Of a stretch of DNA of 64,000 nucleotides, positions 38,733 through 41,700 are shown piece by piece (within the stretch, counting starts at the first letter, position 1; each line of letters starts with the position of its first letter). The position numbers were made by a program, and so were the translations under genes. This DNA comes from Escherichia coli (GTDB lineage: Bacteria; Pseudomonadota; Gammaproteobacteria; Enterobacterales; Enterobacteriaceae), in NCBI RefSeq assembly GCF_001677475.2, contig NZ_CP015229.1; one strand, written 5' to 3'. Under the pieces are notes generated by a model. That model worked only from the letters and a program-made list of their open reading frames with translations. It ran no database searches and had not been told where the DNA came from.

Positions 38733-41700
38733 TTACACCTTTTCCACATTCACAAGGAAGGACTTAAACTCCGGCGTCTGCGTGTTCGCATCACCAACGA
38801 ATGGCGTTAACGTATTGGCAATAAAGCCTTTTTTCGCAACGCCTTCATAGCCCCAGTGAATCGGAATACCGATGGTATCGATATCTTTGCCGTTCGCTTT
38901 CAGCGTGCGAATACGTTTGGTCACCACCGCTTTGGCTTTGATATAGCCACGGTTGGAGGAGACTTTCACGGTATCGCCCTGGGCAATGCCAAGTTTATTC
39001 GCCAGCGACTCACCGATTTCCACAAACTGCTCTGGCTGCAAAATCGCGTTCAACAGCGCGTGTTTGGTCCAGTAGTGGAAGTGCTCGGTCAGACGATAGG
39101 TGGTTCCGACATACGGGAACTTATCGGCTTTACCCAATGCTTCGGCGTCGTCTTTAAAGATACGTGCAGCCGGGTTCGAGATAACGCTTGGATGCAGTGG
39201 GTTAGTTCCCAGCGGCGTTTCAAACGGCTCGTAGTGTTCCGGGAACGGACCTTCCGCCATCTTATCGAGGGCAAACAGACGCCCCATGCCTTCCTGCTGC
39301 ATGATAAACGGCCCGACGCCGCTGCCCGGAGGCGCTGCGCTGTAGTCCGGAATATCCCAGCCGGTCCACTTAGTGCCGTCCCATTTCAGCAACTGACGCT
39401 TCGGATCCCACGGGTTACCCTGCGGATCTGCGGAGGCGCGGTTATACAGAATGCGGCGGTTAAGCGGCCATGCCCATGCCCAGCCCAGCGTGTTACCGAG
39501 GCCAGACGGATCGGCGTTATCACGGCGTGCCATCTGGTTGCCCTCTGGCGTCCAGCTACCGGCGAAAATCCAGCAGCCACAGGAGGTGGTACCGTCATCG
39601 CGCAGTTGGGCGAACGAGCTAAGTTGTTGGCCTTTCTTGACGATAACCGCCCCGGTTGCCGGATCGGTAATATCCGCCAGCGCCTTACCGTTGCTCTCCA
39701 TCGCCACTTCTTCCGACTTCGGCTCATGCGGGATGGCGTAGTTCCAGGTCATGTTCAGCACCTGGTCCGGGTTCGCGCCACCCTGTTCGGCATACATCTT
39801 GCGCAAGCGCAGGAAGATACCGGAGAGGATCTCGCCATCAGTCAGCGCAATCCCCGGGGCGTCCGCACCTTTCCAGTGCCACTGCAACCAGCGACCGGAG
39901 TTAACGATTGAACCGTTCTCTTCCGCGAAGCAGGTCGATGGCAGACGGAACACTTCGGTCTGGATCTTCGACGAGTCAACTTCGTTCAGCTCACCGTGGT
40001 TCTGCCAGAAGTTAGAGGTTTCAGTGTTCAGCGGGTCGATGGTGACGAGGAACTTCAGTTTCGACAGACAACCGATCACTTTGTTTTTGTTCGGGAATGA
40101 GGCAACAGGGTTAAAGCCCTGGCAGATATAGCCATTGACCTTGCCCTCTTTCATCATCTCGAAGTATTGCAGGACGTCGTAGCCTTTATCCCACTTCGGC
40201 AACCAGTCAAAGCCCCAGCTATTTTCCGCCGTCGCTTTATCACCAAAGAAGGCCTTCATCATGGAGACGAAGAATTTCGGGTAGTTGCCCCAGTAGTTAA
40301 CCTGGCCTTCCAGCAGCGGTTTTGGCGTGTTGGCGGTAAGGTAGGTTTGCAGATCGGTCTGCTTCTCGCTTGGCAGCGTCATGTAACCCGGCAGGCTCTG
40401 CGACAGCAGCCCCAGGTCCGTCAGCCCCTGAATATTGGAGTGACCGCGCAGGGCGTTAACGCCGCCGCCTGCCATCCCCATGTTGCCGAGCAGCAGCTGG
40501 ATCATCGCCATCGTACGAATGTTTTGCGCACCAACGGAGTGTTGCGTCCAGCCGAGCGCGTAAAGGAACGAGGCAGTTTTATCGTGAGCACTGGTCTCAG
40601 CGATGTATTCGCAGACTTTCAGGAACGCGTCTTTTGGCGTACCACAGATGTTTTCAACCACATCTGGCGTGTAGCGGGAAACGTGCTGTTTCAGCAAGTT
40701 CCACACGCAGCGCGGATGTTGCAGCGTGGTATCGCGTTTGGCGAAGCCGTTTTCGTCCAGTTCGTAAGTCCAGGAGGATTTATCGTACTTGCGTTTTTCC
40801 GCGTCATAGCCGGTGAACAGGCCATCTTCAAAGCCGTAATCCTCACGCACGATCAGGCTGGCGTTGGTATAGGCTTCGGTGTATTCGCGGTTGAATTTTT
40901 CATTGTTCAGCAGGTACAGCAATACGCCTGACAGGAAAGCAATGTCAGTACCGGAACGAATAGGGGCATAGTAGTCAGCCACCGCCGCCGTACGCGTAAA
41001 GCGAGGATCGATCACAATCAGCTTCGCGCCATTGTGAATTTTGGCTTCCATCGCCCAGCGGAACCCGACCGGGTGAGCTTCAGCGGCGTTACCGCCCATC
41101 ACCACGACGAGGTTGGCGTTCTTGATGTCGACCCAGTGGTTGGTCATCGCACCGCGACCAAATGTTGGAGCAAGACTTGCTACCGTTGGTCCGTGTCAGA
41201 CACGCGCCTGGTTGTCGACCGCGAGCATACCCAGCGCGCGGGAGAATTTTTGCGTTAAATAGCCGGTTTCGTTACTCGACGCGGAAGCACACAGCATCCC
41301 GGTGGAGAGCCAGCGGTTAACAGTCACGCCTTCGGCGTTTTGCGCAATGTAGTTAGCATCGCGGTCTTCTTTCATCAGTTTGGCGATGCGATCAAACGCC
41401 TCTTCCCAACTGATTTGCTGCCATTTATCAGAACCTGGCGCACGGTATTCCGGAAACTTCAGACGGCTTTCGGAGTGGATGAAATCCACCAGGCCAGCGC
41501 CTTTCGGACAAAGTGCACCGCGGTTGACCGGGTGATCCGGATCGCCTTCGATATGGAAGATAGATGCTTTGGCGTTTTTTGCTCCGTCACCGAGGCTGTA
41601 CATCAACAGCCCACAGCCTACGGAACAATAGGTGCAGGTATTACGGGTTTCGCGGGTGCGCAGCAGTTTATACTGCCGAGTTTCCGCGAGTGCTACGCTG

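Follow-up and report, generated by a model that had tools for sequence, protein, structure and literature searches.

UGA codon 196 of Escherichia coli fdoG as a predicted SECIS-dependent selenocysteine codon

The gene for the alpha subunit of formate dehydrogenase O raises the question of how its in-frame TGA triplet is read. In the stretch of Escherichia coli DNA analyzed here (64,000 nt, referred to below as the window), a mechanical listing of open reading frames (ORFs) splits this gene in two. One ORF, 41196..41783(-), encodes 195 amino acids; the other, 38733..41147(-), encodes 804 amino acids counted from its first ATG. Both are in the same frame and contiguous. A single-pass translation (1017 codons) joins them into one frame of 3051 nt on the minus strand, which consists of 1016 codons and a terminal TAA. 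Its sole internal stop is the TGA of codon 196, seen as TCA on the plus strand. An earlier note had described this locus as one frame of that length broken only by this TGA, and had held that it should be annotated as a single CDS; the translation agrees with the former, and RefSeq does list one CDS of 3051 nt at the locus, both for K-12 and for the closest strains. The minus strand was left implicit in that note, and its coordinates fit this strand. The gene, its internal TGA, and its neighbors are located as follows.

38733..41783, minus strand: fdoG, formate dehydrogenase-O alpha subunit, one CDS with a predicted Sec codon 196 (translation, K-12 comparison, TIGR01553, RefSeq)
41196..41198, minus strand: UGA codon 196, predicted to be read as selenocysteine (alignment to known Sec positions, TGA in homologues)
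41977..42810, divergent, upstream of fdoG: FdhD (profile match)
37818..38720, downstream of fdoG: FdoH (FDH-beta match)
37186..37821, downstream of fdoG: FdoI-type cytochrome b556 subunit (NF007924)
36260..37189, downstream of fdoG: FdhE (profile match)

This gene is fdoG, as had been called previously, and belongs to the fdo rather than the fdn operon. Its product is 99.8% identical to FdoG of E. coli K-12 (b3894), with two amino acid differences (K689S and S866N, window residue first), and the order of fdhD and fdoG-fdoH-fdoI-fdhE is the one found in K-12. The gamma subunit scores 453 bits with the FdoI-type model NF007924 and 244 bits with the FdnI model, below the cut-off of the latter (339 bits). 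The two fdoG genes share the 3051-nt length, Sec196, the operon context, and all 60 nt from the UGA on. They differ at 40 scattered nucleotides of the 3051; none of these falls within the recoding element, the closest one being gene nt 753. The E. coli paralogue fdnG has its Sec at the same codon number, 196, and lies in another operon (fdnGHI) with no adjacent fdhD or fdhE; it is 76.9% identical to the window gene in protein and 75% identical in DNA.

Taken literally, the two ORFs delivered by the ORF finder would mean that the TGA is a true nonsense mutation, with fdoG either reduced to a pseudogene or divided into two genes. However, the downstream "ORF" has no start context of its own, and the protein family continues across the TGA. 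When the joined product, with U196 entered as C, is compared with the NCBIfam profile TIGR01553 (formate-DH-alph), it scores 1571.8 bits against a cut-off of 814.2, and the match runs without a break through position 196, aligning residues 2 to 1015 with profile positions 1 to 1009 of 1009. The ratio of two amino acid changes to 40 nucleotide changes relative to K-12 points to purifying selection on both halves of the frame, which also argues against a nonsense mutation.

Codon 196 occupies a known selenocysteine position. The predicted FdoG sequence around it reads ...ARV-U-HGPTVASLAPTFGR, and in protein alignments its residue matches Sec196 of K-12 FdnG and Sec140 of FdhF, a protein of 715 amino acids that is 33% identical to FdoG and carries the same motif, U-H-G-P-(S/T)-V-A. 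The alignment with FdnG and FdhF had been suggested as a check on the recoding, and it places Sec at the homologous position in both. Comparison with solved structures, with a 144-residue fragment bearing C at position 196 as the query, aligns this codon with the nonstandard residue X196 of the FdnG crystal chain 1kqf_A (PDB 1KQF) and with the equivalent nonstandard residue of 1h0h_A, among chains to which the depositors gave the name "selenocysteine-containing" formate dehydrogenase. The same TGA is present in fdoG, fdnG, and fdhF of K-12, and FdnG, FdoG, and FdhF are exactly the three selenopolypeptides of E. coli (PMC4009273). The 161 nt around the TGA recur in 5389 E. coli records at an identity of 99% or more. 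A nonsense mutation would account neither for a TGA shared by these three genes and by so many strains nor for its alignment with the Sec residue of the solved structures.

The RNA that follows the UGA has the features of a bacterial SECIS element. In the numbering used here, which starts from the U of the UGA, nt n corresponds to the window coordinate 41199-n; the element reads UGACACGGACCAACGGUAGCAAGUCUUGCUCCAACAUUUGGUCGCGG... from the UGA on. Its score with the Rfam family SECIS_3 (RF01989) is 84.3 bits, the gathering score being 63, and the match spans model positions 1 to 59 of 59 with E-values of about 1e-19 to 1e-21, among them 8.9e-21; part of this score reflects the conserved coding sequence, not structure. 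Three features are distinguished in this segment.

41143..41201, minus strand: full SECIS_3 match (RF01989), covering the UGA, the 3 nt before it, and the 53 nt after it
41167..41184, minus strand: apical SECIS hairpin GGUAGCAAGUCUUGCUCC, nt 15-32, the putative SelB-binding part (MFE structure, homologue pairing)
41156..41191, minus strand: lower SECIS helix, nt 8-13 with nt 38-43, which encloses the apical hairpin (MFE structure)

In the minimum free energy (MFE) structure computed with ViennaRNA, the apical hairpin contains the pairs 15-32, 16-31, and 18-30 to 22-26, with U17 (41182) bulged and G23 (41176), U24 (41175), and C25 in the loop. The lower helix forms all six of its pairs and has no bulge. 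A stem-loop had been reported immediately 3' of the TGA, and the hairpin and the lower helix are found there on the minus strand, within 41150..41195. The hairpin starts 11 nt past the UGA, inside the ORF, and its loop lies 19 nt past the UGA, within the range of 16-37 nt described for UGA-to-loop distances (PMC10778597). In the fdhF SECIS, the experimentally characterized prototype, the upper stem-loop likewise begins 11 nt past the UGA, with a bulged U17 and with G23 and U24 in the apical loop, and the SelB contacts are U17 and G23 (PMC8659212); the geometry of the fdoG element agrees with this description. Both hairpins start with GGU. They differ in that the fdhF hairpin has 17 nt (nt 15-31) and a GGUC tetraloop, whereas the hairpin of fdoG and fdnG has 18 nt (nt 15-32) and either an extra A22-U26 pair or an AGUCU loop.

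The folding energy does not distinguish this element from background. The 59-nt stretch is no more stable than its dinucleotide shuffles (z = -0.22), 83 of 200 of which fold at least as well. The apical hairpin alone, at -4.5 kcal/mol, is A-U-rich and the weakest of its class, the mean of which is -6.8 kcal/mol among the matches listed. Thus, of the structure prediction that had been proposed as a test of the SECIS, the expected shape is obtained, but its energy does not rise above that of shuffled sequences. Membership of the SECIS_3 family is not defined by thermodynamic stability. The unexceptional MFE of the downstream RNA is one point in favor of a plain nonsense codon. Since the energy is uninformative, comparative tests were used instead, and the evidence beyond chance rests on the covariance-model match and the comparative data, not on thermodynamics.

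Homologous sites were collected by a scan of one genome per species with the pattern U/C-H-G-P-x-V-A-x-L-x4-G-x-G-A-M-x-N, in which only the bases determined by the amino acids were fixed and TGA, TGC, or TGT was allowed at the first position. At least 121 such sites are found in diverse bacteria from many phyla; among the matches listed, 106 of 121 have TGA and 15 have TGY, a distribution at odds with a nonsense mutation. The upper hairpin is 98.9% paired over the 63 distinct FdnG/FdoG-type TGA sequences among the matches listed, and all 63 of them form the pairs 18-30, 19-29, 20-28, 21-27, and 22-26. In two of these pairs, 18-30 and 21-27, both bases are replaced (31 cells among the matches listed): in the same 63 sequences, pair 21-27 is A-U in 43, C-G in 17, and G-C in 3, and pair 18-30 is seen as G-C, A-U, G-U, and C-G. 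Every varying position of the two pairs is a third codon position. The covariation score is 0.208, compared to 0.111 ± 0.008 for shuffles, none of 500 of which reach 0.208, and to at most 0.098 for slid registers. As the homologues are phylogenetically related and comprise only the matches listed, such shuffle counts are not true probabilities, and the same applies to the Mann-Whitney p value given below.

All 73 distinct Sec sequences among the matches listed carry both U17 and G23U24 without exception. The Val codon of the search pattern already dictates U17, so that only G23U24, where the pattern imposes no base, is an independent test. The FdhF-type Sec sequences form every pair of the FdhF hairpin in 10 of 10 cases among the matches listed. 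A crude MFE check for SECIS-like folds recovers 54 of the 63 FdnG-type and 2 of the 10 FdhF-type Sec sequences, the latter figure being low owing to the design of the check around the 18-nt hairpin. For the FdhF-type sequences, the explicit pair counts, not this check, are the relevant result.

Homologues with a Cys codon at this site present a different picture. Fourteen of the 15 could be classified, and the same columns pair poorly in them: among the matches listed, pair 16-30 is formed in 1 of 11 and pair 20-27 in 3 of 11 FdhF-type Cys homologues, pair 15-32 is formed in 0 of 3 FdnG-type ones, and G23U24 is retained in only 3 of the 14. The MFE of the nt 15-32 hairpin is weaker in Cys than in Sec homologues (Mann-Whitney p = 4e-9, for sequences that are not independent). 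A Cys or other residue at the homologous position, together with a lack of downstream structure, had been named as the outcome that would speak against recoding. What is found is the opposite: TGA prevails at these sites, and it is in the Cys homologues that the pairing is lost. The conservation of the TGA, the covariation at synonymous sites, and the contrast with the Cys homologues lead us to reject the view of fdoG as a pseudogene or split gene, for which we see practically no chance.

The sequence itself does not prove which amino acid is inserted, and the UGA might be read through without selenocysteine, by a near-cognate Trp-tRNA or by Cys mischarged on tRNA(Sec), with the downstream region conserved only as coding sequence. 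The amino acid motif HGPTVASLAPTFGRGAMTN is itself highly conserved, as such a reading would have it. However, the synonymous sites either do not change or change together in ways that preserve the pairs, for which selection at the protein level offers no explanation; the homologues that share the protein motif but have a Cys codon keep neither the hairpin nor G23U24; and the score of the element is above the gathering score of SECIS_3, a curated family. Read-through of this kind is therefore considered very improbable. The reading of codon 196 as Sec196 of FdoG, put forward in the earlier note, is supported by the homologous Sec positions, the SECIS match, and the conservation of structure specifically in genes with TGA.

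The lower helix is less well defined, and only the upper hairpin is firmly supported. In the register seen in the window, the lower helix is 82% paired across the homologues among the matches listed, and the Rfam register, which has a bulged C, suits homologues with GGC...GGC better than the register of the window does. A single lower-helix register was considered and rejected: neither the window MFE register nor the Rfam one fits all homologues. According to a review, the lower region of the SECIS contributes only modestly (PMC8659212), and the variable register agrees with such a role.

Within the Enterobacterales, the element is conserved at the nucleotide level. Compensatory changes might have been expected between fdoG and fdnG of K-12, but the paralogues turned out to be identical over the element, in the following segment.

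41131..41201 (gene nt 583-653), minus strand: 71-nt run identical to K-12 fdnG, over the UGA and the SECIS (paralogue comparison)

This run, which begins 3 nt before the UGA and extends about 20 nt past the paired region, is the longest stretch of identity between fdoG and K-12 fdnG; the next longest has 37 nt. In the 71-nt run, 21 degenerate codons in a row are the same in both genes, compared to a background of 0.58 per codon for degenerate codons of the same amino acid, and the expected number of such 21-codon runs per gene is about 0.007. Among the matches listed, 18 loci also carry the exact 60-mer of the window; they come from Yersinia, Photorhabdus, Providencia, Citrobacter, Enterobacter, Klebsiella, Superficieibacter, and E. 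albertii. Inside the element, 19 of 19 of their synonymous codons agree with those of the window, compared to typically about 30-60% in the flanks.

The 71-nt identity could also result from gene conversion between the paralogues instead of selection on RNA structure. Such an origin would fit the extension of the run beyond the paired region and the presence of the identical 60-mer in two loci of one genome, as in Citrobacter werkmanii (L022 and L025), Superficieibacter (L039 and L040), and Enterobacter cloacae (L052 and L053). Conversion within a genome, however, does not explain why the 60-mer is identical between distant genera whose synonymous flanks have diverged, and outside Enterobacterales the sequence changes while the pairing is kept by compensatory substitutions. 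As a substitute for selection on the RNA structure, gene conversion is unlikely; it may contribute to the identity of the paralogues without replacing the SECIS explanation.

Some of the frozen sites exceed what SelB appears to need, such as the unpaired synonymous sites at nt 33-37. They might reflect a second, undescribed constraint on the segment of the UGA and SECIS, such as a programmed pause or a context for competition with release factor 2 (RF2), a titration of SelB common to both mRNAs, or recurrent conversion between fdoG and fdnG, a suggestion to which we attach little credence. In more distant bacteria, unpaired sites such as these vary freely, which argues for lineage history or conversion over a new function.

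The SECIS thus delineated would work in the standard way. UGA196 of fdoG is almost certainly recoded as selenocysteine by the SelB/SECIS-dependent bacterial mechanism, in which SelB binding and Sec insertion are ascribed to this gene from established knowledge. The mRNA directly 3' of the UGA, within the coding sequence, would fold into the SECIS hairpin, with its bulged U17 and with G23 and U24 in the loop. The elongation factor SelB, in complex with GTP and Sec-tRNA(Sec), would bind this hairpin. Once the ribosome arrives at the UGA, the SelB anchored on the hairpin, which begins 11 nt farther on, would compete with release factor 2 by bringing Sec-tRNA(Sec) to the A site. The ribosome would then go on to complete the full catalytic subunit of 1016 residues, in which Sec196 is expected to be a ligand of the molybdenum in the bis-MGD cofactor; we take this metal-ligand role of the Sec position from what is established about the structures of FdnG and FdhF. 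No tRNA gene, and thus no selC, and no sel gene is found in the 64,000-nt window. The sel genes of E. coli lie elsewhere in the genome, so that their absence from the window is uninformative, and the Sec machinery is presumably present in this genome as in the species.

As a feature, this site is already known: it is an ordinary textbook case of recoding in E. coli, with no departure from the SelB-dependent mechanism and no new biology. For annotation, it means that fdoG is to be described as one CDS of 1016 codons with a translation exception at codon 196, and neither as two ORFs nor as a pseudogene. The site was validated by comparative evidence, namely, synonymous sites that are frozen or covary and the loss of the hairpin in Cys homologues, and not by folding energy. 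As a recoding site recognized from raw sequence, fdoG is of use as a positive control when genomes are scanned.

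The alpha subunit gene of the fdo operon is annotated in RefSeq/PGAP as "fdnG: formate dehydrogenase-N subunit alpha," both in the window (38733..41783, minus strand) and at loci L001 (4001..7051) and L125 (8734..11784). The gene so labelled adjoins fdoH, fdoI, and fdhE, and the curated K-12 record, in contrast to the RefSeq/PGAP ones, names it fdoG. The fdnG label arises because a single equivalog model is common to both paralogues, and it is misleading for the fdo-operon locus. The same annotation, fdnG, is carried by 24 matches to the fdoG recoding region, at ~75% identity, that lie on plasmids of the E. 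coli collection (for example, match H14, NZ_JBXULY010000002.1 150161..150283); some strains therefore have, on a plasmid, a further divergent gene for the alpha subunit of formate dehydrogenase.

Among 5,426 complete E. coli genomes, the top identity is 99.1% for fdoG by itself and 97.1% for the 24 kb around it (30000..54000), which align in four pieces to 32.65 kb of the best-matching genome. That genome has a pair of genes, annotated as ATP-binding and hypothetical, between fdhD and yiiG, whereas the window is without this pair. In the 42811..45108 region of the window, the frvABXR operon is absent between two features:
42963..44018, yiiG
45109..46503, carbohydrate porin ORF
The source of the window, a lineage or strain of Escherichia, is somewhat divergent and lies outside the 5,426-genome collection.

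The 5' UTR of fdoG, together with the first codons, is covered by a match to the Rfam family RF02778, "FdoG-1 5' UTR thermometer," with model positions 1-193 of 193 aligned to 41754..41952 (minus strand). This match scores 32 bits, below the family's gathering score of 50, with an E-value of 3e-5 for a search of 5 kb; the 5' UTR is a putative RNA thermometer. The following Rfam matches in the window all reach or exceed their own gathering scores:
7004..7122, Spot 42
8151..8404, CsrC
15327..15434, ES222
17324..17392, STnc370
56563..56640, minus strand, naRNA4
61645..61686, minus strand, ES036
The spacing of Spot 42 and CsrC to fdoG presumably agrees with the K-12 chromosome map.

In FdnG/FdoG-type homologues of some bacteria, selenocysteine is replaced by a Cys codon (loci L068, 3790..3849, minus strand; L108; and L100), which is TGT in Klebsiella sp. 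BIGb0407 and Rivihabitans pingtungensis and TGC in Pectobacterium betavasculorum. The +7 codon in these homologues encodes Ala (GCN), as opposed to Ser or Gly ([AG]GU) otherwise; G23 of the apical loop is therefore lost, and the hairpin pairing is lost together with it.

The exact 60-nt UGA and SECIS sequence of the window is common to at least 18 loci from several Enterobacterales families (L012, L022, L025, L029, L030, L036, L039, L040, L042, L052, L053, L065, L066, L069, L073, L076, L083, and L085), with identical copies in Yersinia, Photorhabdus, Providencia, Citrobacter, Enterobacter, Klebsiella, and Superficieibacter, as well as in E. albertii. Across these loci, even the unpaired synonymous sites inside the element are identical, while those in the flanks have diverged. 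Part of this identity may stem from lineage history or from conversion between the paralogues fdoG and fdnG. The conservation of the 60-nt element exceeds what base pairing by itself needs.
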